The notes under the pieces: model-generated | Told to the model about the DNA's origin: nothing | Databases searched by the model: none | Seen by the model: the letters and a program-made list of their open reading frames with translations, nothing else | Made by a program: the position numbers and the translations under genes | Part shown: positions 1 through 47,627 of the stretch, piece by piece | Numbering within the stretch: the first letter of the stretch is position 1 | Layout: every line of letters starts with the position of its first letter | Source of the DNA: Thermoanaerobaculia bacterium | Lineage (GTDB): Bacteria > Acidobacteriota > Thermoanaerobaculia > Multivoradales > JAIOJS01 | Reading direction: 5' to 3' | Assembly (NCBI GenBank): GCA_030429235.1 | Contig: JAUIDB010000010.1 | Location: forward strand, 13,334-77,333 | Length of the DNA stretch: 64,000 nt

Positions 1-920
1 GCTACTTGGGCCATCTGCTGGTAGGAGGGTCGGTCCGCGACGTCGAACTAGCCAATGGCCACGCCTACCTGGCAGGCAGCGGAGGCTTTACGGTATTGGA
101 TACTTCGTCACCGTGGATGCCAACTGTGTCTGCGAGGTTTGAAACCCAGGGCCGAGCCCTTGATGTCTCGTTGGATTCTGGATTGGCCTATGTTTCCGTC
201 GATGGTCCCGAGGGCCTGTTGATTTATGACTTGGGAGACCCAGGAGTCCCGGTGCTGCTCGGTTCACTTGCGTCGGCATCCGCAGCCGAAGAGGTTTCCG
301 TTAGGGGCGGCTATGCGTTCTTGGCATCACCCTTTCTTGATCTGAAGATCGTTGATATCAGCGTTCCGTCAGCGCCAATCGAAGTTGCTTCGGTAGTAGC
401 CGGGGCCTCCCAGACGACCGCCCTCAATGGCGACTACGCCTATAGCGCCGGTTCTCAACTGGCGGTCATCGATGTCTCCGTTCCGTCCAACCCGGTGGTT
501 CTGGCCTCTCAGGGGTTGCCCTTCTCAATAAGCGACTCTGCAGTTCGCAATGGGGTGCTCTACTTCTCCTCTTCCGGCCTGCGCGTTTTTGACACTGTCG
601 ATCCTCTTTCTCCGAACCAAATCGGATTGCTGTCTCTGGCGGGAGGTTCTTCCCACGATTTGGTCCTCGAGGCCGACCTCGTCTACCTGGCTGCCGGCCT
701 AGGTGGTGTTCGGGTAGTAGATGTTTCTGCGCCCACGGCACCTCGGCAAGTAGCGTATCGCGGTACCTCGTACGCTCGTGGAATTGCGGTTGGTGGTGAT
801 CGGGTTGCTGTAGCCAAGGACGGGCAAGGTCTGTCGATTCTGCAAGGCTGCGCAGGGCTGCTTTTTGCCGATGGTTTTGAGTCCGGGGATACCGTGGCCT
901 GGCCCCAGAGTAGTCCGTAG
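1..920 (+). CDS. Secreted LVIVD-repeat beta-propeller-like protein, 5'-truncated by the window edge, with a C-terminal FADGFESGDTVAW tail
   Basis: ORF 6..920 stays open to the window start. It contains repeated ~45-aa units resembling LVIVD repeats ('LAVIDVSVPSNPV', 'LKIVDISVPSAPI', 'VRVVDVSAPTAP'). It ends with ...LLFADGFESGDTVAWPQSSP. Confidence 0.6.
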   Translation, partial: YLGHLLVGGSVRDVELANGHAYLAGSGGFTVLDTSSPWMPTVSARFETQGRALDVSLDSGLAYVSVDGPEGLLIYDLGDPGVPVLLGSLASASAAEEVSVRGGYAFLASPFLDLKIVDISVPSAPIEVASVVAGASQTTALNGDYAYSAGSQLAVIDVSVPSNPVVLASQGLPFSISDSAVRNGVLYFSSSGLRVFDTVDPLSPNQIGLLSLAGGSSHDLVLEADLVYLAAGLGGVRVVDVSAPTAPRQVAYRGTSYARGIAVGGDRVAVAKDGQGLSILQGCAGLLFADGFESGDTVAWPQSSP

Positions 921-1197
921 CTCTTGCTCTTCAGTGGCGGCTGAACTTCGTGCCAGATGGGAGTGCGTCAAGGTGGGGTTCACCCCTTATACCGTCGTTT
1001 GTTTGGGGACTTCGCCTACGAGCCAACCGCCGAAGATCTGAGGTTTTGGAACGAGTGGGCCGAGGAAGGCAGGAGAGTACTGGGTGCGGGCCGGGTCGGA
1101 TTGCGGGAGTTGGTCGAACCGAACGGTTGGTTCCTCGAACCCTCGCTAGTTCGCGCTAGGATCGCCCCTCGAATCCAGCCACACGAGGAACGTCTCC

Positions 1198-2661
1198 ATG
1201 ATCCGACTGAACCAGCTCCGCTTGCTGACCCTCTTGGTCACGATCGCCGCCGCCCTGCTGCTTGCGAGTCCCTCCGCCTCGACGGAGGCGGGGGAGACCT
1301 CCGATCTGCTGCTGATTCTCGACGCCTCGGGGTCGATGTGGGGGCAGATCGACGGCGAGAACAAGATCGTCATCGCTCGTCGCGTCATGGCGGGCCTGAT
1401 CGAGGGGCTTCCGGACGAGAGCGAGGTGGGGCTGGTGGCCTACGGGCATCGCCGTGAGGGCGACTGCGAGGACATCGAGACCGTAGTGCCGATCGGGCCG
1501 CTCGACCGCGGTGCCCTCACCGGGCGGATCGGGGAGCTCAACCCCAAGGGCAAGACGCCGATCACGCGTTCGGTCGAGGAGGCGTTCGCCTCGGTTCGGG
1601 GGCGGGAGGAGCCGACCACGATCGTGCTGGTCAGTGATGGACTGGAGACCTGTGGGGGCGACCCCTGTGCCACCGTGCGCGCGGCGGCGGAGGAGGGGAT
1701 CGACTTCGTGCTCCACGTGGTGGGTTTCGACGTCGCCAAGGAGGACGTCTCGTCGCTCGAGTGTGCGGCCCAGGCGGGGAACGGGCTCTACCTGACGGCG
1801 GAGACCGCAGGGGAGCTGGGAGCGGCGCTGGATCGGGCGGTGGCGATGCCGGCCGAGGTGCCGGGGGGGCGGCTGTCGGTCAAGGTGATCGCCGATGGCG
1901 AACTGGCCGACGCCGCGGTCCACGTCACGCGGTCCGCCGACGGTGAAGAAGCTGGTGGCGGACGCACGTACACCAGTCCCGAGACGAATCCGCGCATCAT
2001 TCCGCTGGCCGATGGTACCTACGACGTCGAAGTGACCGCGGTCGGCCTGCGCGGCGACAACCAGCGAACCTTCGCCGAGGTGGTCATCGCCGAGGACGGC
2101 GAGATGGTGGAGAAGGTAGTCGACTTCACCGCCGGCGAGGTCACGATCGAGGTCACCCGCAACGGCGAGCTCTCGGACGCCACCGTCCGCGCCTACCGCA
2201 GCGGCACCACCGAGCAGGTCGATGCCAGCCGGAGCTACGCCGCTTCCTCCTCGAACCCGGTACGGTTTCGCCTCACCGCCGGCACCTACGACGTAGAGAT
2301 CGGCTCGGTCGAGATGAGCGACAAACCCGAGCACCGCTGGGAAGGCGTGGTCATCGAACCGGGCGGACTCGCCGAACTCTCGCACGACTTCACCAGCGGC
2401 ACCTTGAAGGTCGGCGCCACCCTGGCCGGCGAACTGGTCGACGCCACCACCTCGGTCCGCCGGGTCTCCGACGGCAAGGCAGTGGCCCAGGGCCGAACCT
2501 ACACGAGCCCCAAGTCGAATCCCAAGACCTGGGATCTCGCTCCTGGCCGCTACCGAGTTACGGTCAAGGGGGTACGGCTCGAGGGGGATCCCCGCCGGGA
2601 GGTCGAGTTGGAGGTCCGGGCAGGTGAGATCACCGAGACGATGGTTGAGTTCGACGGGTGA
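1198..2661 (+). CDS. Secreted von Willebrand factor A (VWA) domain protein with repeated C-terminal beta-sandwich-like modules
   Basis: ATG at 1198 with a GAGGA RBS 8 nt upstream. It has an N-terminal signal peptide and a VWA MIDAS motif 'ILDASGSM'...'LVSDGLETCGG', followed by repeated 'RTYTSP(E/K)(T/S)NP' modules. Confidence 0.8.
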   Translation: MIRLNQLRLLTLLVTIAAALLLASPSASTEAGETSDLLLILDASGSMWGQIDGENKIVIARRVMAGLIEGLPDESEVGLVAYGHRREGDCEDIETVVPIGPLDRGALTGRIGELNPKGKTPITRSVEEAFASVRGREEPTTIVLVSDGLETCGGDPCATVRAAAEEGIDFVLHVVGFDVAKEDVSSLECAAQAGNGLYLTAETAGELGAALDRAVAMPAEVPGGRLSVKVIADGELADAAVHVTRSADGEEAGGGRTYTSPETNPRIIPLADGTYDVEVTAVGLRGDNQRTFAEVVIAEDGEMVEKVVDFTAGEVTIEVTRNGELSDATVRAYRSGTTEQVDASRSYAASSSNPVRFRLTAGTYDVEIGSVEMSDKPEHRWEGVVIEPGGLAELSHDFTSGTLKVGATLAGELVDATTSVRRVSDGKAVAQGRTYTSPKSNPKTWDLAPGRYRVTVKGVRLEGDPRREVELEVRAGEITETMVEFDG

Positions 2662-2688
2662 AAGCTAGGCCGTTCCTTGAAGGGATGG

Positions 2689-3672
2689 CTACTTGCGAGG
2701 GGAGGCCTGCAGAACCGTGTTCAGTACCCCGTCGACGACGGTAGCCATCCGTTCATAGTCCAGCGTGTCGGCAGTGTCCGAGGACGTGTGGTAGTTGGGA
2801 TTCCTCATGAAGGCGGTGTCCGTCACCATCACAGCGTCGTATCCGTTGCGCCAGTAGTTGCGGTGGTCGGAAGCATCGATCCCCATTACCACGGGTCCGT
2901 TGAAGCTGAAGACTGGGATGGTGGAAGCGCCTCTGAACGACTTCTTGGCGTGGGCGGTGAGCCAGGCGTCTTCTGAGCGACCCACCACGGCGATGAAGTT
3001 CCCGTGGTCCGGGTAGAAGAGATCCAGGATCCAGCTGGGCCATGGCTGCTCGTCGACGAAGTAGCCGATCATCTCCAGGTTGATCATCCCCCAGATCTCC
3101 TGCTCCTCGGCGCCCAATAGGTCCGCGTGCACTCGGCTCCCCATGAGTGGGGAAGCGTAGAAGGGCGGCTCTTCCAGGGTGAAAGCGACCAGGGTTACCG
3201 GGAGCTTCGGCTGGGTGGCGCCGAGCAGCCGTGCTAGCTCCAGAAGGCCGGCCGTGCCGCTCGCATTGTCGTCAGCCCCTGGGAACTCGCCAAACAGAGT
3301 GAAGGCATCGTAGTGGGCTCCCACCACGACTCTGGGTCCCTCGTGCGGTCCAAACTCGGCGATCACGTTGTGGTAGTCGGATCCGTTCGCCGGGAAGGTC
3401 TGAAGGCGTACTCGGTCCGAGTACTGCTCGAACAGATCGGCGATGTAGTTGGCGGCTCGGGCGAGATTCTCCGGGTTGTCGCTCCCTCTCGGTACGACCT
3501 TCGTGGTCAGGAAGCGAGTGTGGGCCTCTAGAAGGTCAGCCCGCGCCCGATCGTGGGTCAGATCCTCGAAGTGGCCGAGGGAAGGCCGGCGGAGCACGAA
3601 GCAGGCGGTCGCGAGGAGTGTGAGCGCCAGGATTCCGGCAATCGTGAGGATTCGTAGTAGGCGGCGGAGCAC
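2689..3672 (-). CDS. M28-family Zn aminopeptidase, membrane-anchored or secreted
   Basis: GTG start with a signal-anchor, 'VVVGAHYDAF', and 'GADDNASGTAGLLELARLL' metal-binding motifs typical of peptidase M28. Confidence 0.8.
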   Translation of the reverse strand: MLRRLLRILTIAGILALTLLATACFVLRRPSLGHFEDLTHDRARADLLEAHTRFLTTKVVPRGSDNPENLARAANYIADLFEQYSDRVRLQTFPANGSDYHNVIAEFGPHEGPRVVVGAHYDAFTLFGEFPGADDNASGTAGLLELARLLGATQPKLPVTLVAFTLEEPPFYASPLMGSRVHADLLGAEEQEIWGMINLEMIGYFVDEQPWPSWILDLFYPDHGNFIAVVGRSEDAWLTAHAKKSFRGASTIPVFSFNGPVVMGIDASDHRNYWRNGYDAVMVTDTAFMRNPNYHTSSDTADTLDYERMATVVDGVLNTVLQASPRK

Positions 3673-5685: not shown

Positions 5686-6804
5686 CTAGCCCGTCCTTGG
5701 CGACCTACGCGATGGTGAGATCGCGGCTGAGCTTGCCCGGAAGAAGATCAACGCCGAGAGTAGCGGGCCACCGAGTATGAGCATGAATCCAGAGAACGCC
5801 CTCACAGCCACGTTCTGAATACTGAGGTAGTAGTCCACGAGATGACTCGAGTATTGCCAGGCGTATTGGACCGTGGCGATCGCGATGAGGGCTGAGATAG
5901 CCGGTGCGGCATACCGACGGAGCCACTCTTGGCGTTTGAAGAATGCCGAGATGGGAGCCACTAGAACGGAAAACACCACCAGCATTACGGTCAAGGCCAC
6001 AGAAGCCCGAATCCAGAGGTTCATAACGCCCTTCTGGGTCAACAGGTCTCTCATTCGCTGGCTTTTGGCATGGTCTCGTGCTAGCTTGCCATCCAGGTCT
6101 CGAATGTTGACGTCAGCTCCCATGGCGATTAGTACTTCCGCTACCTGTGTGTAGTCCTCTCTGACCGCGGCCATCAACGGTGTAGTGCCGTCCTGTGCAG
6201 TCGCATCGACTTCGAGGTGTCTTCCGCTGTCTCCGATCTCGGTGAGGATTTCATGGTGACCCCGGGCCGCTACAAACCACAGTGGCGCCGCACCTTCAGG
6301 CCCACCTTTCAGGTTCAGGTTCGCACCGCCGCTGACGAGTTCCCGGAAGACCTCCAGTCGGCCCCGTTTGGCAGCAATGACGAGGGGTGTCTCTCCAAGG
6401 CTGTTTCTCGTGTCGATGTCTGGCATCCTGTCTTGAGCTAGGAGGAGCCTCAGGGTCTGCGTATCTGCGTTTCTTGCGGCTACGTGTAGGACAGTGTCTC
6501 CTGGGGCCATTTCCACAGAGTCGCCTGCTCCCTCAGGGACACGAAGAAAGGCGTCGGCTCCGTTGGCAAGAAGAAGTCGTGCTAATCCGGTACGGCTTCG
6601 GGAGATCGCCCAGAGCAGGGCTGAGATGCCCTCTCCATCCAGTTGGTTCGCATCGCCGGTGTTGGCCAGAGCCGAGAAGAGTTCCTTGACGTTCCCGGAC
6701 TTGGCTGCGGAGACCAGTTTCCCCTCGTTCGCCGCCGCTTGGCTGCTTGCCACGGTAGTCGCAGCCAGCACAAGAGCCACTTTTCCAGCTATACCGAGAT
6801 TCAC
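5686..6804 (-). CDS. Ankyrin-repeat protein with a C-terminal multi-pass membrane domain
   Basis: Signal peptide, then at least five ANK repeats ('GISALLWAISRSRTGLARLLLANGADA', 'GDTVLHVAARNADTQTLRLLLAQ', 'GETPLVIAAKRGRLEVFRELVSGGANLNL', 'GTTPLMAAVREDYTQVAEVLIAMGADVNIRD') and about three C-terminal TM helices. GC is lower than in the flanks. Confidence 0.8.
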   Translation of the reverse strand: MNLGIAGKVALVLAATTVASSQAAANEGKLVSAAKSGNVKELFSALANTGDANQLDGEGISALLWAISRSRTGLARLLLANGADAFLRVPEGAGDSVEMAPGDTVLHVAARNADTQTLRLLLAQDRMPDIDTRNSLGETPLVIAAKRGRLEVFRELVSGGANLNLKGGPEGAAPLWFVAARGHHEILTEIGDSGRHLEVDATAQDGTTPLMAAVREDYTQVAEVLIAMGADVNIRDLDGKLARDHAKSQRMRDLLTQKGVMNLWIRASVALTVMLVVFSVLVAPISAFFKRQEWLRRYAAPAISALIAIATVQYAWQYSSHLVDYYLSIQNVAVRAFSGFMLILGGPLLSALIFFRASSAAISPSRRSPRTG

Positions 6805-7619
6805 CGAGACTCACCCTTCCGAGACAGTTCGAGTTGAATTGATTGGAGTGACTCCCCAGTTCCTGCTAGGAAGCGAGATACCGCCTGCTTTTTTTCTGGC
6901 CGGAGATCTAGGGTTGCCGGACAGAGCCTCTTCTTCGTACAGCTGATACGGGATCGTTCCCACTCGTCTATGGATTGCGCCAACTCGAGCAGTCGAAGCG
7001 CTACGGTTTCTCGCTGTCGTTCGTAGCTATCGATTCTGTGAGACAGGGTGTTCTCGGTCCGTTCGGTTGTCTCCCGGACCGCAGTGAGTTCCTTTTTCGT
7101 CTCATAGAGCTGTTCGAGTGTTTCGTTGGCTTTGGCTTGCAGGTCCACAAGTTCGTCCTCGACGGTTTGTATGTGCGCCCCGACCCCAGCGAGTAGAAGC
7201 TCGAAACTCGTACGGATTTCCGAGCGCACTTCGTCGTCGTAGTTCTGAAGCTGCCCCTCCACTTGACGAAAGACCTTCTCTCGATGATCGTTAAAGGCGC
7301 TGGGAATTTGGTCTACGTACTGCATCACCTGCTCGTTGAGTTCGAGGTGTCTACGCACCAGATCGTCGTGTTCACTCCGAAGTACTGATAGCTCGACTTC
7401 GTGAATCCGGAGTTCCTTCCGGAGGTCGGCCGTCAACTCGTTCGCTCGCTGAAGCTGATCTGAACAGCCCTGGCCTTCGGACCTGCATCTCTTGAGATCC
7501 CTTTCGCAGCAGGCTGCGGTGCCACTGATAAGAAAGACGAGCAGTAGCCGAGTCGGCAACGAGCGGCTCCGGCGGTGGAGGCTCCTTTCAGATCGAACCA
7601 TCATGGATTCTTTGTCCAT
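6801..7619 (-). CDS. Coiled-coil lipoprotein (hypothetical), probably co-transcribed with the ankyrin gene
   Basis: ATG at 7619 with an AAGGAG RBS and a signal plus lipobox-like 'LISGTAAC'. A long heptad-rich coiled-coil region follows. There is a 4-nt overlap with the downstream ankyrin gene. Confidence 0.6.
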   Translation of the reverse strand: MDKESMMVRSERSLHRRSRSLPTRLLLVFLISGTAACCERDLKRCRSEGQGCSDQLQRANELTADLRKELRIHEVELSVLRSEHDDLVRRHLELNEQVMQYVDQIPSAFNDHREKVFRQVEGQLQNYDDEVRSEIRTSFELLLAGVGAHIQTVEDELVDLQAKANETLEQLYETKKELTAVRETTERTENTLSHRIDSYERQRETVALRLLELAQSIDEWERSRISCTKKRLCPATLDLRPEKKQAVSRFLAGTGESLQSIQLELSRKGESR

Positions 7620-7684
7620 CCGATCTCCTTCTTCCGAGGCCTTCTCGGGCGGCCTTCACAAAACAACTCGTGGGGCCATGGATC

Positions 7685-7700
7685 TGCAAGGCCCGGGCCA
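7685..7700 (-). promoter_or_regulatory. Sigma-54 -24/-12 promoter candidate for the coiled-coil/ankyrin operon
   Basis: The minus strand reads TGGCCC-gggcc-TTGCA, ~65 nt upstream of the ATG at 7619. GG and GC spacing is correct, but the match sits in a GC-palindromic context and could be chance. Confidence 0.35.
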
Positions 7701-7820
7701 AGCCCTCCCGGAGGCCTGGGTATGTCTGGACGCGATTTCCGGCGCGACCCCGAGTGCAAGCAGGTGAAGAGACTGGCTGTGGACGTTGCTAAGCTAGTGT
7801 CTACCCGTGTCTCTCGGAAG

Positions 7821-10577
7821 ATGCGCGCTCCTGACACAATAGGGCCAGCAATGAACAGAGACGGGGATCAGGGTGTCCCATCGGTTCCGAGCCCGGCCCT
7901 AGCAGCCGGAGCCACCTTCCGCTCCCGCTACGAGATCGTCGAACGGCTCGGTCAGGGCGGCTACGCCGAGGTGTACCGGGCTCAGGATCTAGAGATCGAT
8001 CGCGAGGTCGCCTTGAAGATCCTGCGGCCGGATCGGACGAGTGACGCTTCGGTACGCCGGCTGAAGCGGGAGGCGGCGGTGGCCCGGGATGTGGAGAGTC
8101 CTCATCTGGTTCGGGTCTTCGAGGTGGATACGTCGACTCTGCCGGCGTTTCTCACCATGGAGGTGGTGGAGGGGGGCAGCCTGCTGGAGGAGATCGCGGC
8201 GGGCCCGGTGCCGATCGAGCGGGTGCTGGAGGTGGCGCGGCAGGTACTCCTCGGGTTGGAAGCGCTGCACGGAATGGGGATCCTGCACCGGGACATCAAG
8301 CCCAGCAACGTGATGATCACGTCGGACGGCCAGGTGAAGCTGGCCGACTTTGGGATGGTCCACCAACTCTCGCGAGAGTCGACGCGGCTGACCGAGTCTT
8401 CGGCCATCGTGGGGACGATCGACTACGTGGCTCCGGAGACGGTTCTCGGCGATCCGCCCGACGGTCGAGCCGATCTCTACGGGCTCGGGTTGTTGCTGTT
8501 CGAGATGCTCACGGGGAGCCTGCCCTTCGGTGACTCCCCTTCGGCTCTCGGCGCTGCGTTGGAGCGCCTGCACCGATCACCGCCTCGGGTGGTACCGCTC
8601 CGACCAGAGACCCCCCGTTGGCTAGAGAAGGTCGTCCTGAGGCTCCTCGAACGACGTCCGGAAGACCGTTTCGCGAGTGCCGAGGCCGTGCGCCGCGCCT
8701 TGCGCGAGCATCGTGTGCCGCGATCTCGTCGGGTGTGGCGACGGAACGCCTGGCTGGCGGCGGGGATCGTGCTGGCCAGTGTCGCGAGCGCCTGGGTGCT
8801 GGCGAGGATAGGGGGATCGATCCCGGTCCTCTCGCACATCACGGCGCAGGAACCGGAGCCGGGCCTCTTCGGGCTCTCGGCTGACGGTGAGGTGCTGTGG
8901 CATCGGCCCGACCTGAGGTCCGGTTGGTGGGTCACTGCCCAGTCGAGTTCGGGGGGCGGACCGATTCCCCTCGGGTTGCGGGCCGGGGCCGGGCCACAGG
9001 ATCTGGAGGTGCTGCACCAGTTGCTGGTTCTCGATCCCACCAGCGGGGAGACGGTGGACCGAGTGACGCTGCCTTCGGCGGGAGATGAGTTTCCCGGTTT
9101 TGCACCGCGGTTCCAGCCGGAACTCCACGCGGTCGACATCGATGGAGATGGCGGCGAGGAGGTGGTGGTCACCTACTTTCACACCTACTGGCCCTCGTAC
9201 ACCGTGGTCTATGAACCCAGATGGCGCCGGGCGCGGGTGGCGCTGTTGGCGGCGGGGCACCACCGCCCGGTCGGCGTGGCCGACGTGGATTCTGACGGCA
9301 ACAACGAACTGATCTTCCTGGGAGTTTCGAACCGCATGGGTTGGTACGCTGGGCTGGCCGCAGTTTCGATGGTGCCTCCGATCAACCGGCCGGGAGAGGC
9401 GACGCTGAGTACGGCGGCGGCCACGACGCCGGACGGCTACTTCCTCAGGCGATGGCGGGGCATGGTTTGGTACGCGCTCGCTCCGCCCGGGATCTGGTGC
9501 TCCGGGATCGGCACCTGTACCGAAGTGGACCCCGATGCTCGTGAGATTCGCCTGGAACCCCCCGGCGGCTCGCAAGTGCGCTACTCGTTCGACGGGTACC
9601 TAGTGGAAGACCGGGTCTCCGGCCTCGATTCGGCGGAGCGGAACCGCCGCCGGGGTCGCGCCTACAAGCACCTGGAGGAAGCGGGGCGGCTGCTCGATTC
9701 GCGGCTCGAAGATTGGGGCGAGGAGGAGGCCGAGCGAGCGGTGGAGTTGGCTCGTACGGTCCGCGACCGCTTCCTTACCGACTGGGCCCTGCGCACGCTG
9801 GGGAGGATCGTGATCGAGCGCGGACGAATCGAGGAAGGAGAGCAGATCTTCGAACAACTCTCGGTCGACTCTCCAGCTGCTACCAGCGCCGCCTTCGAGG
9901 CCGCCCACGCGCTGCAATTGGCTGGCCGCCCGGATCGCTCTCTCGATTGGTACCCGCGGGCCTTCGGCGCCGCTGGGGACTGGGGACCGGGCCGCAGTCG
10001 CGACCGGCTGGTTCGGGGGTTGTTGTTGGCCTACAGCGAGATCGGTGACTACGAAGGAGCACAGAAGGCCCTCGACCGGTTCAGCAATCCCGGGCAGATC
10101 ACGTCGCGAATCGACACGTATCTGAGGCCCTACGTCGCCTGGCGGATGGAGGATCGATCCGTAGCCCCCATGCCCTACCGCGCGGGGAACCCCGATCTGG
10201 AGGTCTATTGGAGCCTCGAGCAGGCGCTGGCTCACGGTACCGAACTCGAAGTCCTTTGGGAACGGGTGCAACTCGCCATGGACCAGAGTTCGGAGGAATT
10301 GCCTTTGCTGCAGAATCTGGCCGGTGAGATCCAATGGAAGATGGGTCGCCGTGCGGAGGCTTTGGTCTGGTTCGAGAGGGCTTTCGCGGGAGGTGAAGCG
10401 GAGCTCGAGCGGAGTATCTCGGTCCGTGCCCACTTCGATCTGATCGTCAGCCGACTGCTGCGGGGAGTCCGCGACGCAGGCCTCGAGACCAGAAGCAGAG
10501 AGATCGCGAGCGTGGCGGAAGCCTGGGATTCTCATCAGCGGCAGCTGCGTCATCTCATGTCTGTCAGAGGGCAGTAA
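7821..10577 (+). CDS. Hanks-type Ser/Thr protein kinase with a TM segment, FG-GAP/VCBS-like repeats and C-terminal TPR-like region
   Basis: Kinase subdomains 'LGQGGYAEVYRA', 'VALKIL', 'HRDIKPSNVM', 'DFGM' and 'APE' are present. There is a TM segment after the kinase, 'DIDGDGGEEVVV'/'DVDSDGNNELIFLG' repeats, and a TPR-like C-terminus. The ORF opens at 7575 but overlaps the convergent gene. Start chosen at the ATG at 7821 (7851 is also possible). Confidence 0.8.
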   Translation: MRAPDTIGPAMNRDGDQGVPSVPSPALAAGATFRSRYEIVERLGQGGYAEVYRAQDLEIDREVALKILRPDRTSDASVRRLKREAAVARDVESPHLVRVFEVDTSTLPAFLTMEVVEGGSLLEEIAAGPVPIERVLEVARQVLLGLEALHGMGILHRDIKPSNVMITSDGQVKLADFGMVHQLSRESTRLTESSAIVGTIDYVAPETVLGDPPDGRADLYGLGLLLFEMLTGSLPFGDSPSALGAALERLHRSPPRVVPLRPETPRWLEKVVLRLLERRPEDRFASAEAVRRALREHRVPRSRRVWRRNAWLAAGIVLASVASAWVLARIGGSIPVLSHITAQEPEPGLFGLSADGEVLWHRPDLRSGWWVTAQSSSGGGPIPLGLRAGAGPQDLEVLHQLLVLDPTSGETVDRVTLPSAGDEFPGFAPRFQPELHAVDIDGDGGEEVVVTYFHTYWPSYTVVYEPRWRRARVALLAAGHHRPVGVADVDSDGNNELIFLGVSNRMGWYAGLAAVSMVPPINRPGEATLSTAAATTPDGYFLRRWRGMVWYALAPPGIWCSGIGTCTEVDPDAREIRLEPPGGSQVRYSFDGYLVEDRVSGLDSAERNRRRGRAYKHLEEAGRLLDSRLEDWGEEEAERAVELARTVRDRFLTDWALRTLGRIVIERGRIEEGEQIFEQLSVDSPAATSAAFEAAHALQLAGRPDRSLDWYPRAFGAAGDWGPGRSRDRLVRGLLLAYSEIGDYEGAQKALDRFSNPGQITSRIDTYLRPYVAWRMEDRSVAPMPYRAGNPDLEVYWSLEQALAHGTELEVLWERVQLAMDQSSEELPLLQNLAGEIQWKMGRRAEALVWFERAFAGGEAELERSISVRAHFDLIVSRLLRGVRDAGLETRSREIASVAEAWDSHQRQLRHLMSVRGQ

Positions 10578-14029: not shown

Positions 14030-16819
14030 ATGAGGAACAACGGCAGGGTGCAATCTCGACGCCGGTTCCTTCACAGATTGGGGATTGCGTGGGCGCTGGC
14101 TGGACTGCTCGCCAGTGCGACCGGACTCAGGGCGGGTGAGTCGGCGCCTGCGGCGATGGCGGCTGATCTCGGCGAGATTCCAGGGTGGACGTTTCTCGAT
14201 GCGGCGCCCGGGGGCTTTCAGGAACTCGACGGGATCGTCTACTTCTTTGCGCATGACGGTGTTCACGGGCAGGAACTCTGGCGAACCGATCTGACGGAGG
14301 CCGGTACCTGGATGGTCGAGGACATCTGTCCTGGCTTCTGTCACGGCATGACCAATGGCCCGCCGATGGTTCAGAGCGGTGGGGCGCTGTATTTCTTCGC
14401 CGACGACGGGGGGTCCGGGGGGGAGCTGTGGACTTCGCGAGGTACGGCCGAGACAACTCGGATCGTTCGGGACTTGCAGGCCGGCCCGGCCTCCTCCGCT
14501 TGTGGTCAGTTGATCGAGTTCGGAGGCCAGGTCGTGTTCGGTGCTGACGACGGCATCCATGGCTGCGAACTCTGGGTCAAACCCTCTTCGTGGGCGGGAG
14601 TCCAGCTGCTGGTCGATGCAGTTCCCGGCGCCGACTCCGGGTTCTCGTCCGGTTATCGCCGTCTCTTTCCGCTCGACGATCAGCTTCTCTTCTGGTCGCA
14701 GGACTCTCTCTGGACGACGGACGGTACTCCGGCTGGAACCGAGAAGGTCACCGAGGTCGTGGCGAACCTCGACGTGCCTTGGTTTCACGACAACGGCCCA
14801 CGGGCCTTCGACGGCAGGTTGTTTTTTCAAGGCTGGGACGCAGTACATGGCTGGGAACTGTGGGCCACCGACGGAACCGCAGCGGGTACGGGTCTGGTTG
14901 CGGACCTGGTCGCCGGTAGCGGCAGCAGTTCTCCGGACGACTTCGTGGTGCACGCCAGCCAACTCTGGTTCGCAGCCCGGGGCGAGGACCAGGACGGGGA
15001 ACTGTGGCGGAGCGATGGGACCTCGACGGGTACTGCGTTTGTCGCCGATGCGGACTGGGGTCCCCTGGGGAGTACCCCCGCTGGCGTCCTCTACGTGGTG
15101 CACAACGGAGTCCAGAGCGAGCTAAGGATCGCCGACGGGAGTCAGGTGAACACACTGGTCAGCGTAGAGGATGTTTACTTCTACTTCCTCTATCCTCGTC
15201 GACAGCTCGATGGTGGGGTCTTCCTGGCGCTGAACGCGGGGCAAACCGGTCCGGAGCCCTGGATCTCCGAAGGCACTCCCGAGACCACGCGGCTTCTCGC
15301 CGACATCTACCAGGGCGAGGAGGGTTCCATGTTCCTTCCTCTGGACACCGCAATCCAGCTCTCGACGGGAGAGATCCTGTTCAAGGCCTATTCCCCCGAG
15401 ATCGACTACTCGCCCTGGGTCAGCGATCAGACGACGGCTGGCACCCGCCGAATCAAGCGGATCGACGATCAAGTTTCGGCCGGGTATCCGGGACGACGAC
15501 TCCTCTATTCCAGCTTGGCCCCGATCGGACCACGATGCCTGACGAGTCGATACTCTCTGGAGTACAACCGCGAGGAGGCGTGGTCCTCGGCCGGAGACCC
15601 AGCGACGGTGGCTAGGATTCCCGTCCACCAGGGGCCTGGCGCCACGGTGCTTCAGGCAGATCCCGGACCTACTCCTGCCACTCGTTCCCGCGCCATTTTG
15701 AGAGTCCACGGGGAAGAGGGACCCAGCCTGTGGGGCACGGACGGTACGGTTCAGGGAACCGAGGAGATCACCGCGGCTTTCGGTGCGACGAGTCTGGGGC
15801 TCGAACGTTTCGTGGCGACTCCAGATCGCGTCTGGATCCAGAACCACGATCGGGTCTGGAGTACCGATGGAACCCTGGCCGGAACGGTGTGGGTTCCCTC
15901 CTGGAACCAGGTCAGAGACGCTGCCGTCGTCTCTGGCCGCACCTACCTGGCGCTCGGCAACAGCGGGACCGGAGTAGAACTCTGGCTTCAGCACCAAGGG
16001 GCAGCCCCGGTTCCGGTTCGCGACATCGAGCCAGGACCCGATAGTTCCACGCCATCGTGGCTGACGACCGGTTCCGAACCGAACCTCGGGGTCTTCTTCT
16101 TTGCCAGTACTACAGAGACTGGTCGCGAGCCCTGGTTCTCGGATGGAACTGCGGAGGGAACCTACCCGCTCGGGGACATCTTTCCTGGCGAGGAAGACTC
16201 TCGCGAGTTGACTGAGGAGCCCAATTCCGGCGGGGCCGTGGGGGCCTTCCTGGGGTCGACGCTCGTGTTCGCGGCCGATGACGGAGTCCACGGCAACGAA
16301 CTGTGGGCTTCGGATGGGAGTCCCGAGAGTGCGACTCTGCTTCTCGACCTCGTGCCGGGCAACGTGGGAAGCGAACCCGCTTGGTTTACCACCTTCGAGG
16401 ATCGGGTCTACTTCGTGGCCTCCACTCTGGAGCACGGACGAGAGCTCTGGCGGACCGACGGCACTCCGGAAGGCACCGAGATCGTGTTGGATCTGTTCCC
16501 GGGACGGCGTTCCGCTCTGCCCCACGATCTCTTGGTACGTGGTGACACTCTCTTCCTGGTCGCCGCCGACCCCGCCCACGGTTCCGAATTGTGGAGGCTC
16601 GACTCCGAGGGCCTCGAACTGCACCAGGACATCAATCCAGGGCCCGACTCGTCGTCACCGAGCTGGCTGGCGCTCGGTCAAGATCGACTCTGGTTCATGG
16701 CGACGGACGGTGTTCACGGGTTTGAACTCTGGAGCCTTCCGTTTGGGCTACTCTTTGCAGACGGCTTCGAATCTGGGGACGTCACCGCCTGGGGAGAAGC
16801 CGGGTCGGTCGTTCGCTAG
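14030..16819 (+). CDS. Tat-exported ELWxxDG-repeat beta-propeller protein with a C-terminal FADGFESGDVTAW tail
   Basis: The twin-arginine signal is 'SRRRFLHRLGIAWALAGLLASATGLRA'. About 15 tandem ~55-aa repeats each carry '(E/P)LW(R/T/A/S)(T/S)DGT'. It ends with ...LLFADGFESGDVTAWGEAGSVVR. Confidence 0.8.
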   Translation: MRNNGRVQSRRRFLHRLGIAWALAGLLASATGLRAGESAPAAMAADLGEIPGWTFLDAAPGGFQELDGIVYFFAHDGVHGQELWRTDLTEAGTWMVEDICPGFCHGMTNGPPMVQSGGALYFFADDGGSGGELWTSRGTAETTRIVRDLQAGPASSACGQLIEFGGQVVFGADDGIHGCELWVKPSSWAGVQLLVDAVPGADSGFSSGYRRLFPLDDQLLFWSQDSLWTTDGTPAGTEKVTEVVANLDVPWFHDNGPRAFDGRLFFQGWDAVHGWELWATDGTAAGTGLVADLVAGSGSSSPDDFVVHASQLWFAARGEDQDGELWRSDGTSTGTAFVADADWGPLGSTPAGVLYVVHNGVQSELRIADGSQVNTLVSVEDVYFYFLYPRRQLDGGVFLALNAGQTGPEPWISEGTPETTRLLADIYQGEEGSMFLPLDTAIQLSTGEILFKAYSPEIDYSPWVSDQTTAGTRRIKRIDDQVSAGYPGRRLLYSSLAPIGPRCLTSRYSLEYNREEAWSSAGDPATVARIPVHQGPGATVLQADPGPTPATRSRAILRVHGEEGPSLWGTDGTVQGTEEITAAFGATSLGLERFVATPDRVWIQNHDRVWSTDGTLAGTVWVPSWNQVRDAAVVSGRTYLALGNSGTGVELWLQHQGAAPVPVRDIEPGPDSSTPSWLTTGSEPNLGVFFFASTTETGREPWFSDGTAEGTYPLGDIFPGEEDSRELTEEPNSGGAVGAFLGSTLVFAADDGVHGNELWASDGSPESATLLLDLVPGNVGSEPAWFTTFEDRVYFVASTLEHGRELWRTDGTPEGTEIVLDLFPGRRSALPHDLLVRGDTLFLVAADPAHGSELWRLDSEGLELHQDINPGPDSSSPSWLALGQDRLWFMATDGVHGFELWSLPFGLLFADGFESGDVTAWGEAGSVVR

Positions 16820-35844: not shown

Positions 35845-36020
35845 AGTATGGCATCTCCGAGGGCCACAAAGTCGCTGCTTTCGGCAGGCTTGTCGATCCG
35901 TCCTACGTCGGCGGGGTGGATTTGGATGAAGTCATCTATCGCGGGCATCGTGGCGTAGACCTCCATGAAGCCACCGATCCACCGCGTGCGCCGCGCACCA
36001 TCTTCAAGGAGTTCCTGCCG

Positions 36021-37448
36021 ATGCTCTATCGTTTGTTTCGTAGAATGTTTCTCGCTCTGGTCTCGATCTCGCTCCTCGCTGCCGGCGCGTCGGCGAGCAC
36101 CCATCGAGGCCCGACCGTCGTCCCGACCGCGGAGGGTCAGATCGGGGAGACACCCGGGGTGGACGACCGGATCCTGGGGCCCCGCTTCGAGTCGATCCGA
36201 GGCCAGGCCGGCGAGGTCCTGTTGGGGAGCAGCGTGCTCTTCGGAGGGGTGATGCCGCCGCCGCCGGCCTTCGACTTCCTGACGGATCGGCTGCACGGCG
36301 CCAGCAATCCGGTACCGATCACCAGTGCCACGAGCTCCTTCCTGACGGTGCCGATGCAGTCTCCGGCCTCGGATCGGCGGCGCGCGGCCAGTGGGCTCGG
36401 TGACTTCGTGGCCTTCAGTTTCGCCGTCGACGGCTCATTGCCCCAGACGATGACGGTTCGGATCGCCACCTTCGACGAAGACGGGACGACGCTGGCCTCG
36501 GTGCCGGTGGCGGTCGATGTCCCGACGTTCAGCGTTCCGGACCCCTTGTTCACCAAGACCGGCGTAGCGGTCGACGACCAGGGTCGGGCTACCGTCGTCT
36601 TCACCCAATTCGACTCCGGGATTCCTACGGTGCGCGGTCAGCGGGTGAGTGTAGTGACGGGAGCCCCGATCGGTGGGTCGTTCCCGATCGGACCCGCGGC
36701 TCAGGCGAACCCTGACGTCGCTCTGCTCGATCCGGCGGGCGATCGACTGATCGTGGCCTCCAACCGCTTCACCAATCCCCCGGTGCTGGTCGGCAATATC
36801 GTCGACTTCTCCTCGGGCAGCCCCGTGGTCTTGCCGGAGTTCACGATCCCCAATACCCCGGCCAGTTTCGGCAACTTACTCACCGATGTTGCCGCAGACC
36901 CGGCCACCGGTACCTCCACCGTGGTCTGGGATCAGTTGACCGGCGTGCTCGGCAACCCGGCCGACGTGCGCGCCCGGCGCTTCGACGCCATGGGCAACCC
37001 CATCGGTGGCGACTTCCAGGTCAACACGCTCGATGCCAACGCGCAGGGCCAGGCGGCGGTGGCCTACGGACCGAACGGCAACTCGGCCATCATCTGGGCG
37101 GGAGATCCCGCCGCACCGCAGGGTCCCGAGGATCTCGACGTGTTCGGCCAGGCCTACGACGCCGACGGCAATCCGATCGGCGGCGAGGTGCCGGTGAACA
37201 CGTTCACGACCAACACCCAGGACCGGCCGACGGTTCGGTTTCTACCAGAGCCGGACGCGCAGGGTCGGTCCCAGTTCGCCGTCGCCTGGCGCGACACCGG
37301 GGACTCCACGGGGGCAACTCCGCGCGGCACCGGTCAGAGCTACCGCTGCTTCTCGATCGAAGGTCTGGAGGATCCTACGGAGATCTTCGCCGACGGCTTC
37401 GAGTCCGGGGACACGACATCATGGTCCGAGACGCAGCCCGGGTCATAG
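36021..37448 (+). CDS. Secreted hypothetical protein with a C-terminal FADGFESGDTTSW tail
   Basis: ATG at 36021 with an AAGGAG RBS and a Sec signal 'MLYRLFRRMFLALVSISLLAAGASAS'. No recognisable domain. It ends ...IFADGFESGDTTSWSETQPGS. Confidence 0.65.
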   Translation: MLYRLFRRMFLALVSISLLAAGASASTHRGPTVVPTAEGQIGETPGVDDRILGPRFESIRGQAGEVLLGSSVLFGGVMPPPPAFDFLTDRLHGASNPVPITSATSSFLTVPMQSPASDRRRAASGLGDFVAFSFAVDGSLPQTMTVRIATFDEDGTTLASVPVAVDVPTFSVPDPLFTKTGVAVDDQGRATVVFTQFDSGIPTVRGQRVSVVTGAPIGGSFPIGPAAQANPDVALLDPAGDRLIVASNRFTNPPVLVGNIVDFSSGSPVVLPEFTIPNTPASFGNLLTDVAADPATGTSTVVWDQLTGVLGNPADVRARRFDAMGNPIGGDFQVNTLDANAQGQAAVAYGPNGNSAIIWAGDPAAPQGPEDLDVFGQAYDADGNPIGGEVPVNTFTTNTQDRPTVRFLPEPDAQGRSQFAVAWRDTGDSTGATPRGTGQSYRCFSIEGLEDPTEIFADGFESGDTTSWSETQPGS

Positions 37449-40803: not shown

Positions 40804-42336
40804 CTACTGCTTCCCTCGATCCAGGTAGGCCAACCGCAAGGAGACCACGCCCCATGGGCTGCGGAACGACAGACCGCTGCTGACCTCGAACCCCCGTTCG
40901 AAGTCGGGCGCAGCGGGAGAACCGGCGAACGAACTGCCGTCGAACAGGGTCAGGGCCTGGGTCCAACGCAGTTCCCGGCTCCCGTGCCGACGGCTGGAGT
41001 GTAGGAGTAGGCTGTGTTGGAGCGAAGCCTGCAGTCGCCACACCGTCGAACGACTCGATCCGAGGCCCAGTCCCGAAGGCGCGACGTCGTCCACCTTGCG
41101 TTCTCCGGCCAGGATCCGACCGGAGACACCCAGCGACTGCCGGGCACCGAACGAGCGGTGGAGTTCCCCTCCCAGTGAGAGGCCGAGCAGGGACGAGTCC
41201 ATCTCCGCCAGCGGGGTCGTGGAGTCGAGGAAGGAGCGAATCGGGCCGAGCCGCGCGGTCAGGTGCTGCCACTCGATTCCCGCCTGCAAGCGGGCCCCGT
41301 CGGTGGGGAAGAGGGGGTCGTCGACCGAGTCGAATCGCCACGCCAACTCCAGCCGCTGGTCCTCACGGTCCTCGAAGCCCAGGGTGCTCTCGACCACCGG
41401 AGCGACGGCGGACCGACGGATCCCGGAATCGCTCCGCCGCGCTTCACCGCGGAGGAGCAGGGAGTGGTTGCGCCGCAGGGGGACTCCAAGGTCGAGCCGG
41501 AACCGGGTCGTGCGTTCGCCGGCGCTCCAGGTCGAGGCCGTCGGGTCGAGGACGTCGTGGAGCTGAGTACGGCACTCACTGCCGGCCGCCGGGACCGCGT
41601 CGTGGCCGATGGCCGACTCGAGAGAATCCACGATCTGCTGCCGCACGTCCTCGCAGTGCACGGTCGAGACGCTGAGGGTGGCCAGGCCCCCGCGGCCGAA
41701 AGGGTCGTAGCGGCTGACCCCCGCGGTGAGTTCGCCATCCCCACTGACGACGCCGAACGCGACGAGGCTCGGGCCGAGAGCGAAACGCCGACCGGCGAAC
41801 AGGGTCGTTCCGTCGACCCGATCGGTGGTGGCCAGCCCGTCGACCGAGACGTCGTGGGCCCACCAGGTGGCCTCGGAATACAGGCCGAAGACCCACCTTC
41901 GGACCTCTTCGACCCGAATCTGCAGGTGGTACAGACCGCGGGAGGAACCCTTCTCGAGCGAGAACTCGGCGTCCAGGACCAGGGGGAGCCGGACGATGCG
42001 GGCCATGGCCTGGCCGAGCTGCGACTCGCTGTAGGCGTGGCCCTCCTCCAACTGTGCCGTGTTGAGGAGGCTGGTCGTCGACAGCAGGGAGATGCCGTCG
42101 ACGGCGATCGTCTCGATCGCGAACCGAGGGCCCTCCGGGGGCGGCGGGGGCGAGGCGGCGTGCGTGGCCGGCGGGGGAGGCTGGGCGCGTCCCGTGGAGG
42201 GGCCCACCGCGGATCCCAGGAGGAGAGCGAGGCCGATCAGGACGACCGGCCGCCTCCAGCTTCCGCGGAGCCGGTTGCGGTGTGGCGGAGCGGGCCGCGG
42301 GATTCCCTGCACAAGGCCTGGTCGTCGGGTTCTCAT
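40804..42336 (-). CDS. POTRA-domain outer-membrane beta-barrel protein (ShlB/FhaC/HecB TpsB-like or Omp85-family)
   Basis: Signal peptide, then a POTRA-like segment 'FAIETIAVDGISLL...LEEGHAYSESQLGQAMARIVRLPLVLDAEFSLEKGSSRGLYHLQIRVEEV'. The remainder is rich in predicted beta-strands. It lies 3 nt from the downstream DUF4390 gene. Confidence 0.5.
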   Translation of the reverse strand: MRTRRPGLVQGIPRPAPPHRNRLRGSWRRPVVLIGLALLLGSAVGPSTGRAQPPPPATHAASPPPPPEGPRFAIETIAVDGISLLSTTSLLNTAQLEEGHAYSESQLGQAMARIVRLPLVLDAEFSLEKGSSRGLYHLQIRVEEVRRWVFGLYSEATWWAHDVSVDGLATTDRVDGTTLFAGRRFALGPSLVAFGVVSGDGELTAGVSRYDPFGRGGLATLSVSTVHCEDVRQQIVDSLESAIGHDAVPAAGSECRTQLHDVLDPTASTWSAGERTTRFRLDLGVPLRRNHSLLLRGEARRSDSGIRRSAVAPVVESTLGFEDREDQRLELAWRFDSVDDPLFPTDGARLQAGIEWQHLTARLGPIRSFLDSTTPLAEMDSSLLGLSLGGELHRSFGARQSLGVSGRILAGERKVDDVAPSGLGLGSSRSTVWRLQASLQHSLLLHSSRRHGSRELRWTQALTLFDGSSFAGSPAAPDFERGFEVSSGLSFRSPWGVVSLRLAYLDRGKQ

Positions 42337-43325: not shown

Positions 43326-43352
43326 CCGGCTTCCGAACCAGGAGGATCTCTG

Positions 43353-45385: not shown

Positions 45386-45590
45386 GGTCGGTACTCCTCG
45401 GTTCTGCGGTGGCAAGGTGACGAGAGGAAGGGTAGAGGACTGCTCGCGGCGGGGCCAGTACGGTTTCTGTACCTCACCGGTAGCGTTTCTGTACCGCGAC
45501 TTCGCCCCGCAGGCGGCACAAAGCGCCATCGCGAGGCAGGGATGGGTGGGTTCGGGTGCATTTTGGCGAGGATCGGTCTACGATCGGTGC

Positions 45591-46274
45591 ATGCCCGGAT
45601 ATGGCCAGTTCTGTCCAGTGGCGAAGGCGTCGGAGGTCCTCGCCGAGCGTTGGACTCCGCTCGTCGTCCGCGAACTGCTGTCGGGGAGCCACCGCTTCAA
45701 CGAACTGCAGCGAGGCGTCCCGCTGATGTCGCGTTCCTTGCTCTCCAAGCGCTTGAAGGAACTCGAACGGGCGGGAGTGGTCGAGCGCCGGAAGCTGGCC
45801 GGTCAGGGCACCCACGAGTACTACCTCACACCGGCGGGAGAGGAACTCCGCCCGATCATCGAGGGCCTGGGAGTGTGGGGCCAGCGTTGGGTACGCCAGG
45901 CGGTCGAACCGGAGGATCTCGATCCCGCGCTCCTGATGTGGGACATTCGGCGCCGAGTGCTCTGTGACGAGATCGAGGGCCGTCGCGTCGTCACCCGGTT
46001 CGACTTCCTCGGCGTACCGGCCGCGAAACGGCGTTGGTGGCTGGTCGTCAGTGGCGACGGCTGCGATCTCTGTCTCACGGATCCCGGATTCGAAGTGCAG
46101 CTCTTCCTCGAGGTCGGGATTCAGCCGCTGACCCACTACTGGCTGGGTCGGATCGAGTGGCGCCAACTGGTGGCGACCGACGGTTTTGCCCTCGAGGGGC
46201 CGACCTGGGCGCGACGTTCGTTGCCAAAGTGGTTGGGCCGCAGCAGCACCGCCCCCTACGCTCGTCACGACTAA
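45591..46274 (+). CDS. HxlR-family transcriptional regulator with a C-terminal extension
   Basis: The wHTH is 'QFCPVAKASEVLAERWTPLVVRELLSGSHRFNELQRGVPLMSRSLLSKRLKELERAGVVERR'. It is divergent from the FAD-linked oxidase. Confidence 0.75.
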   Translation: MPGYGQFCPVAKASEVLAERWTPLVVRELLSGSHRFNELQRGVPLMSRSLLSKRLKELERAGVVERRKLAGQGTHEYYLTPAGEELRPIIEGLGVWGQRWVRQAVEPEDLDPALLMWDIRRRVLCDEIEGRRVVTRFDFLGVPAAKRRWWLVVSGDGCDLCLTDPGFEVQLFLEVGIQPLTHYWLGRIEWRQLVATDGFALEGPTWARRSLPKWLGRSSTAPYARHD

Positions 46275-46385
46275 ACCTGGGCGATCCCCATAGAGTGGCC
46301 CCGGGAATGGTGGGTTGCGGGGAGCATGTTCATGCGCTTTCGTTGCCTGGGAGCGAGCGGCCATCATGGGGCGAGAGGAGGTCCC

Positions 46386-47627
46386 ATGCACCGAGCACTT
46401 GTTCTCTCCGGAGCGTTCCTGGTTTCGTCGTTCCAGCCCATCTGCGCCGACAGCTACGTCGTCGATACCGAGGCCGACGTCATGGCGACCGGCTGCTCGG
46501 ACATCGTGGTAGGCGACTGTAGCCTGCGCGGTGCGATCCAAAGGGCGAACCAGAATCCCGGGCTCGACGTGATCACCTTCGGCTTCGGGGTGGCCGACGT
46601 TGCGCTGGGAATCGTCGGTTCCTACGAGGATGACAATCAGCAGGGCGATCTGGACATCCTGGAGGAGGTAGTGATCAACGGCGGCGACGTGGTGACGATC
46701 GACGGCAGTCTGATCGGTGATCGAGTGTTCGACGTGATGACCAGCACGACCGTCGAACCGACGATCCTTCAGGGGCTCACAGTGACGGGCGGAGCGGCGC
46801 CGTCGGGAGACTCTCTCTTCGACGGTGGCGGCGTCCGCTGTGACTCTTCTCGGCTCCACCTCGAAGCCGTGGTGCTCGCCGGCAACGGTCCGGTCCGCAA
46901 TGGGGGAGGAGTGTTTGCCCTGTCGTGCGACCTCTCGGTCGTCACTTCCACCCTCGACCACAACACGGCGACCGGTCTGGGAGGTGGACTGCACTTCGAG
47001 TCCGGATCGGATCTTTCGATAGCCCACGTCGCCTTCGTGGCCAACGTCGCCAGCTCGGGGGGTGGGTTGCAAGTGCACTCGGCGAGCGCCACCGTCGAGA
47101 ACACGACCTTCAGCGGCAACGACGCCGACAACGATGGGAGTGCGTTGCAAGTTGCGTTCGGCGAGTTGGAACTGGGCTTCGTGACCGTGGTCGGAGGGAC
47201 CGGCAACAACACTCTGTCCAACGCCGCGTCGGTGGTTTCGACCGTGGCCAACTCGGTGATCGTCGGTACCTGTCAGGGGACCTTCACGACCGAGGGTGGC
47301 AATCTCGAAGCGCCCGGCGACACCTGCGGACTCGACCCTCTCGTCGACCAGTTCTCCGTCGCCGATGCCCTCCTGCAGCCGCTGGGCTTCTACGGGGGGC
47401 GGACGCCCTCCCATGCTCCGCGCTGGGACAGTCCCGCGGTTGACGATCCTCTCGGCGTCATCGCCGACTGTCCCACGGTCGATCAGCGCCTCCAGCCTCG
47501 ACCCGTCGATGGCAACGGGGATAGCATCGTCGGGTGTGATGCCGGCGCCGTCGAAGCGGACGAACTGATCTTCGCCGACGGATTCGAGTCGGGCGACACC
47601 CTCGCCTGGGGGGTTGCCAGCCAGTAG
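46386..47627 (+). CDS. Secreted right-handed beta-helix (Pmp-like repeat) protein with a C-terminal FADGFESGDTLAW tail
   Basis: ATG with a GAGGAGG RBS and a signal peptide. Repeats of the form 'GGGV(R/F)..', 'GGGLHFESGS' and 'GGGLQVHSAS' are typical of parallel beta-helices. It ends ...LIFADGFESGDTLAWGVASQ. Confidence 0.7.
   Translation: MHRALVLSGAFLVSSFQPICADSYVVDTEADVMATGCSDIVVGDCSLRGAIQRANQNPGLDVITFGFGVADVALGIVGSYEDDNQQGDLDILEEVVINGGDVVTIDGSLIGDRVFDVMTSTTVEPTILQGLTVTGGAAPSGDSLFDGGGVRCDSSRLHLEAVVLAGNGPVRNGGGVFALSCDLSVVTSTLDHNTATGLGGGLHFESGSDLSIAHVAFVANVASSGGGLQVHSASATVENTTFSGNDADNDGSALQVAFGELELGFVTVVGGTGNNTLSNAASVVSTVANSVIVGTCQGTFTTEGGNLEAPGDTCGLDPLVDQFSVADALLQPLGFYGGRTPSHAPRWDSPAVDDPLGVIADCPTVDQRLQPRPVDGNGDSIVGCDAGAVEADELIFADGFESGDTLAWGVASQ

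Follow-up and report, generated by a model that had tools for sequence, protein, structure and literature searches.

We have analyzed a stretch of 64,000 nucleotides (hereafter the window) from a Thermoanaerobaculia bacterium of the phylum Acidobacteriota (assembly GCA_030429235.1, contig JAUIDB010000010.1, positions 13,334 to 77,333), in which four genes of unrelated architecture encode proteins that finish in the same short C-terminal tail. The tail is a modular, widespread and unnamed element. It is a specialized autonomous derivative and not a random stub, and profile alignment indicates that it is homologous to the start of a concanavalin A (ConA)-like jelly-roll domain. It occupies the position of a sorting signal in two protein families, choice-of-anchor Q and LVIVD. 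We propose tentatively, by analogy with known sorting signals, that it could be an autonomous cargo tag that is read in trans after export by Sec or Tat, for retention at the cell surface or sorting at the outer membrane. C-terminal cargo tags are as such already known; what is new here is an unnamed tag that has neither a helix nor a folded domain and appears to derive from a fragment of a jelly roll.

Four tails in the window

An earlier note on this DNA, made from the sequence alone, had placed the tails at the extreme C-terminus of four unrelated secreted proteins, and six-frame translation finds them there. FADGFESGD occurs exactly four times in the window, always on the + strand and each time at the end of a long open reading frame (ORF) with coding-type GC content at third codon positions. 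The tails have the form [LI]FADGFESGDxxxW followed by 4-9 residues and the stop codon. No further copy, strict or degenerate, is present in any of the six frames of the 64-kb window. An identical nine-residue peptide that occurs four times, each just before a stop codon, is not due to chance in 64 kb. The tails and the genes that carry them are as follows.

Tail 1, 861-917, + strand: LFADGFESGDTVAWPQSSP; stop codon at 918-920; ends 9 residues past GD with a terminal Pro, the modal form; aligns with positions 1-16 of the domain-X model described below.
Tail 2, 16751-16816, + strand: LFADGFESGDVTAWGEAGSVVR
Tail 3, 37383-37445, + strand: IFADGFESGDTTSWSETQPGS
Tail 4, 47568-47624, + strand: IFADGFESGDTLAWGVASQ
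Carrier gene 1, 3..920, + strand: 3' part of an LVIVD-repeat β-propeller gene whose 5' end is beyond the window; Pfam LVIVD 1.1e-27, 5 repeats.
Carrier gene 2, 14030..16819, + strand: 929-aa ELWxxDGT-repeat protein; NCBIfam TIGR04534 1.3e-155, 15 repeats.
Carrier gene 3, 36018..37448, + strand: exported protein of 476 aa that has FQVNT-like repeats and a Sec-type signal MLYRLFRRMFLALVSISLLAAGASAS.
Carrier gene 4, 46386..47627, + strand: 413-aa right-handed β-helix with a choice-of-anchor Q domain.

Scans with Pfam and NCBIfam models bear out the unrelated architectures of the LVIVD, ELWxxDGT, family-less and β-helix carriers. Carrier 1 has in addition a weak match to choice-of-anchor B, and no Pfam or NCBIfam family matched carrier 3. 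Carrier 4 belongs to choice-of-anchor Q (NF041518), scoring 44.6 bits against a cut-off of 25 over residues 327-391 of 413, and this domain stops two residues short of the tail. Its closest relatives come from metagenome-assembled genomes (MAGs) of Acidobacteriota and Thermoanaerobaculia, and homologues bear the annotation CSLREA or choice-of-anchor Q protein. Gene 3 probably begins at 36018 and gene 4 at 46386, and for gene 4 a database protein of identical sequence (P0121) confirms the start. All four proteins had been given a signal peptide in the earlier note. That stands for carriers 2-4, which have Tat or Sec signals, both types being represented (carrier 2 has a Tat-like SRRRFL signal, QSRRRFLHRLG...); for gene 1 the relevant 5' end lies outside the window.

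The 27-nt core that encodes FADGFESGD differs between copies at 3-7 positions. All the differences are synonymous and the peptide is identical, so the claim that selection maintains the peptide holds; the tail is under purifying selection. It is also selective, since other clearly exported proteins of the window lack it, i.e. a VWA protein, an M28 peptidase, an esterase, a SurA-like peptidyl-prolyl isomerase, sulfatases and a PD40-amidohydrolase.

Distribution and consensus of the tail

One genome per GTDB species was scanned with a degenerate DNA pattern for FADGFE[ST]GD, and at least 117 stretches matched. The tail is thus abundant in other genomes, beyond any local coincidence. The counts given below for these loci, both taxonomic and per genome, are among the matches listed and are biased samples.

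Together with the window the listed loci hold 128 copies of the motif, and in 114 of these a stop codon follows within 25 residues. The stop falls exactly 9 residues past GD in 59 of these 114, and the last residue is Pro in 67 of them (59%) and Trp in 8. In 113 there is a Trp at +12, a residue that the search pattern did not include. The consensus reads [LIV]FADGFESGDTSAWSxxVP-stop, with 4-13 polar residues between the motif and the stop, a net charge of approximately −3, and an enrichment of Pro and Gly just upstream. Of the C-terminal copies in the loci, 91 of 110 come from MAGs labeled Acidobacteriota, mostly Thermoanaerobaculia and Holophagae. The remainder comprise 12 that are unclassified and a few from Myxococcota-type bacteria ('Deltaproteobacteria', Polyangiaceae), Gemmatimonadota or Kangiella.

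A profile built from the tail, when searched against 1.84 billion cluster representatives, gave 6,913 clusters at E ≤ 1e-3, a figure that also counts copies within domains. A search with a 44-aa profile returned only short metagenome fragments, all 'hypothetical', and gave no family size. Loci L003, L022, L066, L068, L089, L103 and L104 contain extra tail genes beside those matched by the pattern, detected with the domain-X model and having a variant second residue, for example VFFDGFESGD, LFSDDFESGD and IFTDGFESGD. Local clustering of tail genes, as in the window, is therefore found elsewhere too, and a scan for the exact pattern gives too low a count of the family.

The carriers are very diverse. 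The 79 complete tail proteins from the listed loci match no fewer than 84 Pfam families, among them S8 and M14 peptidases, FG-GAP, BNR/sortilin, β-helix, LVIVD, InhA-like MAM, GSDH and LamG. A crude hydrophobicity test finds the N-terminus to be signal-peptide-like in about 65 of 83, so that the proteins mostly look exported. Tail proteins match choice-of-anchor J, B and O models, the end of the J domain lying just upstream of the tail. We also obtained matches to the myxosortase- and rhombosortase-dependent M36 peptidases. These were partial and far below cut-off, they arose from a choice-of-anchor J/MAM-like region upstream of the tail, and the proteins are not M36 peptidases.

Placement at the C-terminus is not as strict as had been supposed. 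Tandem double tails, approximately 20-24 residues apart, are found in P0255, P0263, P0264, P0267, P0304 and P0327. Isolated units are found in the Pro/Ser/Thr-rich linkers of large S8 proteases (P0250, P0262, P0258 and P0283), sometimes embedded twice; these proteases also carry Lys-rich stretches. P0333 has a tail unit near its N-terminus, and there is one Thermoanaerobaculia copy with further domains after it.

A model of carrier 4 was made with AlphaFold2, having a mean predicted local distance difference test score (pLDDT) of 91.6. The body exceeds 90 up to about residue 390, and the last three blocks of 10 residues score 64, 53 and 46. From these low values the tail is predicted not to pack on its carrier.

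The tail resembles the start of a jelly-roll domain

The earlier note had treated the tail as a stand-alone motif. In this it was mistaken, because the motif serves as N-terminal signature for a ConA-like jelly-roll domain that is common. The top matches of the representative search contain 2-6 copies of the motif at a spacing of approximately 190-290 residues, and the last copy is typically approximately 185-205 residues from the end of the protein. Repetition at the spacing of a domain indicates that the motif is the N-terminal signature of a repeated domain, which we term domain X. Among the matches listed, about a dozen internal copies (from Actinomycetota, Chloroflexota, Dormibacterota, Planctomycetota and Vicinamibacteria) have approximately 190 residues after each, and the matches from the first four of these phyla are all in-domain copies.

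In P0257 domain X matches the Pfam family PF14099 (Polysacc_lyase) with 51.2 bits against a threshold of 29.9, position 1 of that model falling on the GFE of the motif. Positions 3-47 of the CBM_4_9 model (PF02018) span the whole motif. A protein with two copies of domain X was modeled with AlphaFold2 (pLDDT 86.9), and in this model the motif makes up the first strand and a loop. The model matches glucuronan lyase 2zzj of polysaccharide lyase family 20 (PL20), the carbohydrate-binding module CBM22 and alginate lyases, and the fold is therefore that of a ConA-like jelly roll.

We built a hidden Markov model (HMM) of 211 positions from 89 copies of domain X. Every tail aligns with approximately positions 1-17 (the window tails with 1-16 or 1-18), and has the N-terminal signature hFxDGFExGxxxxW. 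The complete β-sandwich of approximately 190-210 residues is lacking, as the stop is 4-13 residues past the motif. Since the other ~190 residues are absent, the tail is a fragment, with homology to the beginning of the domain, and does not belong to the family. There is no ConA-like domain in the window.

What the tail shares with the ConA-like modules (the PL20-like PF14099 and the CBM_4_9 PF02018) is the sequence of the domain start. It differs from them in lacking the ~190 residues, in standing on unrelated folds, in being predicted unpacked, and in having a consensus of its own, with T at position 9 and a VP end. Position 9 is Thr in 64 of 114 tails among the matches listed, whereas it is Leu or Phe in 79 of 90 domain copies, where this side chain is presumably buried. 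At position 17, 55 of 91 tails have Pro, against 56 of 90 domain copies with Thr or Gly.

The tail stands where other lineages have sorting signals

For carrier 4 we compared 120 homologues at the residues directly past the CDxGAxE end of the choice-of-anchor Q domain. This point is followed by one of several alternatives: the long tail, a short form ..FADGF[EDQ], helices like those of IPTL-CTERM or MYXO-CTERM, a YLPLIxK-stop in Chloroflexi, or RTX repeats. Variants of the long tail among these homologues include IFMDGFESGD and LFDDGFESGD. The LVIVD homologues of carrier 1 likewise end in the long tail, a type IX secretion system (T9SS)-type domain (P0373, P0366), a YLPL tail, a membrane-helix tail, or nothing.

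In the short form the stop comes right past ..[IV]FADGF[EDQ], with 0-4 extra residues. It is found in Rhodanobacteraceae, among them one isolate in culture, and in several homologues from metagenomes. Examples are P0162 (Tahibacter amnicola WP_261693161.1, L119:10001-11509), P0426 and P0427 (Dokdonella sp.), P0159, P0161, P0163, P0169, P0190 and P0207. The short form could correspond, at the level of the gene, to a long tail after processing. An FG-GAP protein neighboring a short-form gene (L119:795-2066) ends in RIFADGWGMRWPDQP.

Chloroflexi-type homologues of carriers 1 and 4 have another short end past the last domain, [YF][LV]P[LM][IV]x[KR]-stop, and none of the family models used matched it. 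It is carried by P0176, P0186, P0188, P0201, P0204 (Chloroflexus sp.), P0227, P0233 and P0377. Possibly this is another C-terminal tag without a name.

Among solved structures, the nearest to carrier 4 is that of Acinetobacter rhombotarget A (9cdv/9cdu; Foldseek E 4e-7, TM score 0.58), a protein that in TIGRFAMs carries a GlyGly-CTERM signal. The two are alike in fold and differ in their C-terminal tails. Rhombotarget A has been listed as a substrate of the type II secretion system (PMC5861075).

Comparison with known C-terminal signals

The tail had been claimed to be undescribed, a match to an existing model having been named beforehand as the result that would count against this. No Pfam-A or NCBIfam (release 20) model matches the tail, either within whole proteins or with the tails alone at E ≤ 10. 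Full-text literature searches for the motif, its variants and keywords gave nothing relevant.

The C-terminal domain (CTD) of T9SS substrates (TIGR04183/PF18962) and the tail are both helix-free C-terminal cargo tags, found on S8 peptidases, propellers and β-helices. However, the CTD is a folded β-sandwich of approximately 70-100 residues in the FCB group, whereas the tail has an unrelated sequence, occurs mainly in Acidobacteriota and at 19-22 residues is far too short. No such domain matched the four proteins or their tails, and a phmmer search with two T9SS-like CTDs found nothing. TIGR04183 does match 2 of the 79 tail proteins (L033:1224-4751, − strand, and L079:645-4049, − strand), giving several internal partial matches to repeats of Ig-like or CarboxypepD_reg type and no C-terminal CTD. 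Automatic annotation could misread these as a T9SS CTD.

With PEP-CTERM, IPTL-CTERM, MYXO-CTERM, GlyGly-CTERM and LPXTG the tail shares enrichment in particular lineages, presence on many unrelated exported proteins per genome, and a place past choice-of-anchor domains. The signals for exosortase, rhombosortase, myxosortase and sortase consist of a motif, a transmembrane helix and a basic cluster. Inspection of the tails agrees with the earlier reading that neither helix nor cluster follows the motif, there being polar residues and then the stop; the tail is acidic and aromatic rather than hydrophobic, and has no cognate enzyme known. Nor does it resemble a signal for the type I secretion system (T1SS), as carriers 2-4 have Tat or Sec signals and lack RTX repeats. 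An outer-membrane β-signal has an aromatic terminal residue at the end of a β-barrel; the tails mostly end in Pro, and their carriers are propellers and β-helices. We also considered the Bacteroidetes-type O-glycosylation sequon D-(S/T)-(A/I/L/V/M/T), and rejected it because the DTS of the consensus does not fit.

A proposed cargo tag read in trans

We suggest that a module of approximately 18-20 residues, derived from the first β-strand and loop of a ConA-like jelly-roll domain, may have been recruited as a tag on many unrelated exported proteins, chiefly in Acidobacteriota (Thermoanaerobaculia and Holophagae). Sec or Tat would first take the cargo across the inner membrane. The flexible tail would then be recognized in trans, most plausibly by β-strand augmentation into a partner. 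This could be a receptor, a scaffold or a sorting factor, possibly with a strand-accepting jelly-roll fold. Recognition would finally mark the cargo for retention at the cell surface or for passage of the outer membrane. There is a conceptual likeness to strand-donation and docking systems (cohesin-dockerin, chaperone-usher, type V pilus donor strands, and the split CnaB pair SpyTag/SpyCatcher), in which a short piece completes or binds a β-sandwich partner. Tandem tail copies would add avidity, as in docking systems. The likeness is one of analogy, with no sequence relationship.

We favor a cargo tag read in trans, with confidence that falls a little short of even odds. The more particular claim, that the tail is one half of an unrecognized sorting or display system of Acidobacteriota and a few other diderm lineages, a strand-and-loop peptide of approximately 18 residues that was split from a jelly-roll fold and docks through strand complementation with a dedicated partner (receptor, scaffold or outer-membrane factor), we consider unlikely. 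If it held, this would be a natural tag-and-catcher system, free of both transmembrane helix and folded CTD, by which many unrelated enzymes and adhesins per genome are sent to the surface or the exterior.

Several points weigh against the cargo tag. The argument from the sorting-signal position is one of analogy only. To our knowledge the well-characterized C-terminal sorting signals are all either folded domains or a motif plus helix, and we know of no experimental precedent for a 20-residue acidic peptide as an outer-membrane signal. Internal tails occur now and then (L058, P0333, P0250), and hence a free C-terminus is not required. Since the motif also belongs to the ordinary structure of a common domain, its conservation could partly reflect that origin. 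With the domain-X HMM, no copy of the jelly roll that lacks its first strand was found among the ORFs of the loci and the window. Finally, the dedicated recognition machine that had been postulated did not emerge. In the 117 listed loci of 8 kb, with 3,111 ORFs clustered all-against-all, there was no conserved neighbor other than tail proteins and no sorting enzyme, and no partner, protease or transporter was identified in the data for the loci and the window.

Apart from further tail proteins, the families that do recur in this clustering are Ser/Thr kinases, sensor proteins and extracytoplasmic function (ECF) sigma factors, all of them abundant. Paralogues of a Ser/Thr kinase with tetratricopeptide repeats (TPR) occur in 13 of the 117 tail loci listed (e.g. 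L104, L040 and L080), and the sensor and ECF sigma-factor families in 5-7. This recurrence is probably because these families are very abundant in the genomes. Within the window there is no candidate enzyme. An Omp85-family gene is present at 40804-42336, and nothing links it to the tails.

Alternative explanations

We take the alternatives in falling order of probability. The tail could act in cis as an end-cap that has no partner, through a carboxypeptidase-resistant Pro end, a Ca2+-binding acidic loop, or as an aid to folding or solubility where the exterior is rich in proteases. A terminal Pro in 59% of the copies listed and the net charge of approximately −3 would suit such a role, as would the fact that many carriers are themselves peptidases, including M14 carboxypeptidases. 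Moreover the FE..G..W start of jelly-roll carbohydrate-binding modules contributes to a structural metal site. Yet an end-cap would have no need of the 14 invariant or near-invariant residues that precede the Pro, and the short forms end in ..GFE without Pro. A tail that is predicted to be detached from the body cannot stabilize the fold, and the sorting-signal position would be left unexplained. We regard a role in cis as doubtful.

A processing tag or pro-peptide is somewhat more doubtful. Here the tail would hold the site of a protease or transpeptidase and be removed in maturation, in the manner of a T9SS or sortase substrate of very small size, and the protein might then be attached to a surface polymer. 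The short forms of Rhodanobacteraceae (Tahibacter and Dokdonella) and metagenomes do look like a long tail cleaved past GFE, and the position is that of tags that are cleaved in other lineages. However, the search of the loci described above yielded neither a candidate enzyme nor a conserved neighbor, and the internal and tandem copies would be cut inside proteins.

The kinship with domain X raises the further possibility of a functionless domain stub. A C-terminal jelly-roll module would have been lost, or never have been finished, and the tail would be what is left of its first strand or an abortive form of it. The alignment of the tail with positions 1-17 of 211 of the HMM is what a stub would give. 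So too are the many proteins in which the full domain stands at the same terminal position, with the last motif approximately 185-205 residues from the end, and the start of the PF14099 and CBM_4_9 models on the motif. But random truncation would not fix a stop 9 residues past GD (59 of 114), a terminal Pro (67 of 114) or a T at position 9 in the matches listed. Nor would it hold the peptide identical across synonymous change, reach 84 Pfam families, or yield tandem and linker-embedded units. A stub is thus improbable, the more so than either a role in cis or a processing tag.

A known signal in disguise (T9SS CTD, PEP-CTERM/exosortase, GlyGly-CTERM/rhombosortase, LPXTG or T1SS) could claim the C-terminal position on secreted proteins and the TIGR04183 matches in two tail proteins, but those matches are internal and partial, no NCBIfam or Pfam model matches the tails at E ≤ 10, there is no hydrophobic helix or basic cluster in their 19-22 residues, and carriers with N-terminal signals and without RTX repeats are unlike T1SS substrates, so that this explanation is refuted at the level of sequence and deserves hardly any weight.

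Other features of the window

An exported protein with PMP repeats and a lamin-tail domain (30065-32230, + strand) ends in ...SCSMVPVELLGFSVE-stop. This C-terminus differs from the tail, and the data examined contain no second example. The gene content at 5686-6804 (− strand), 21448-23745 (+ strand), 56390-58906 (+ strand) and 7575-10577 (+ strand) is like that of marine or sponge-associated Acidobacteriota. It comprises a protein with ankyrin repeats, whose N-terminus is signal-like and whose C-terminal part has a hydrophobic segment, together with two sulfatases and a TPR-bearing Ser/Thr kinase.

Implications

Acidobacteriota are among the most abundant bacteria of soils and sediments, and the way in which they export and display the many hydrolases and adhesins that they possess is poorly understood. 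If the tail is indeed a cargo tag, the likely surface or extracellular proteome of these mostly uncultured bacteria would become definable from sequence, and an unknown recognition step past Sec or Tat export would be indicated. The tail would then be a new type among C-terminal sorting signals, deserving an annotation model of its own. It could also provide a very small portable tag for protein display. The kinship of the tail to the first strand of a jelly roll suggests how tags may evolve from a piece of a fold.

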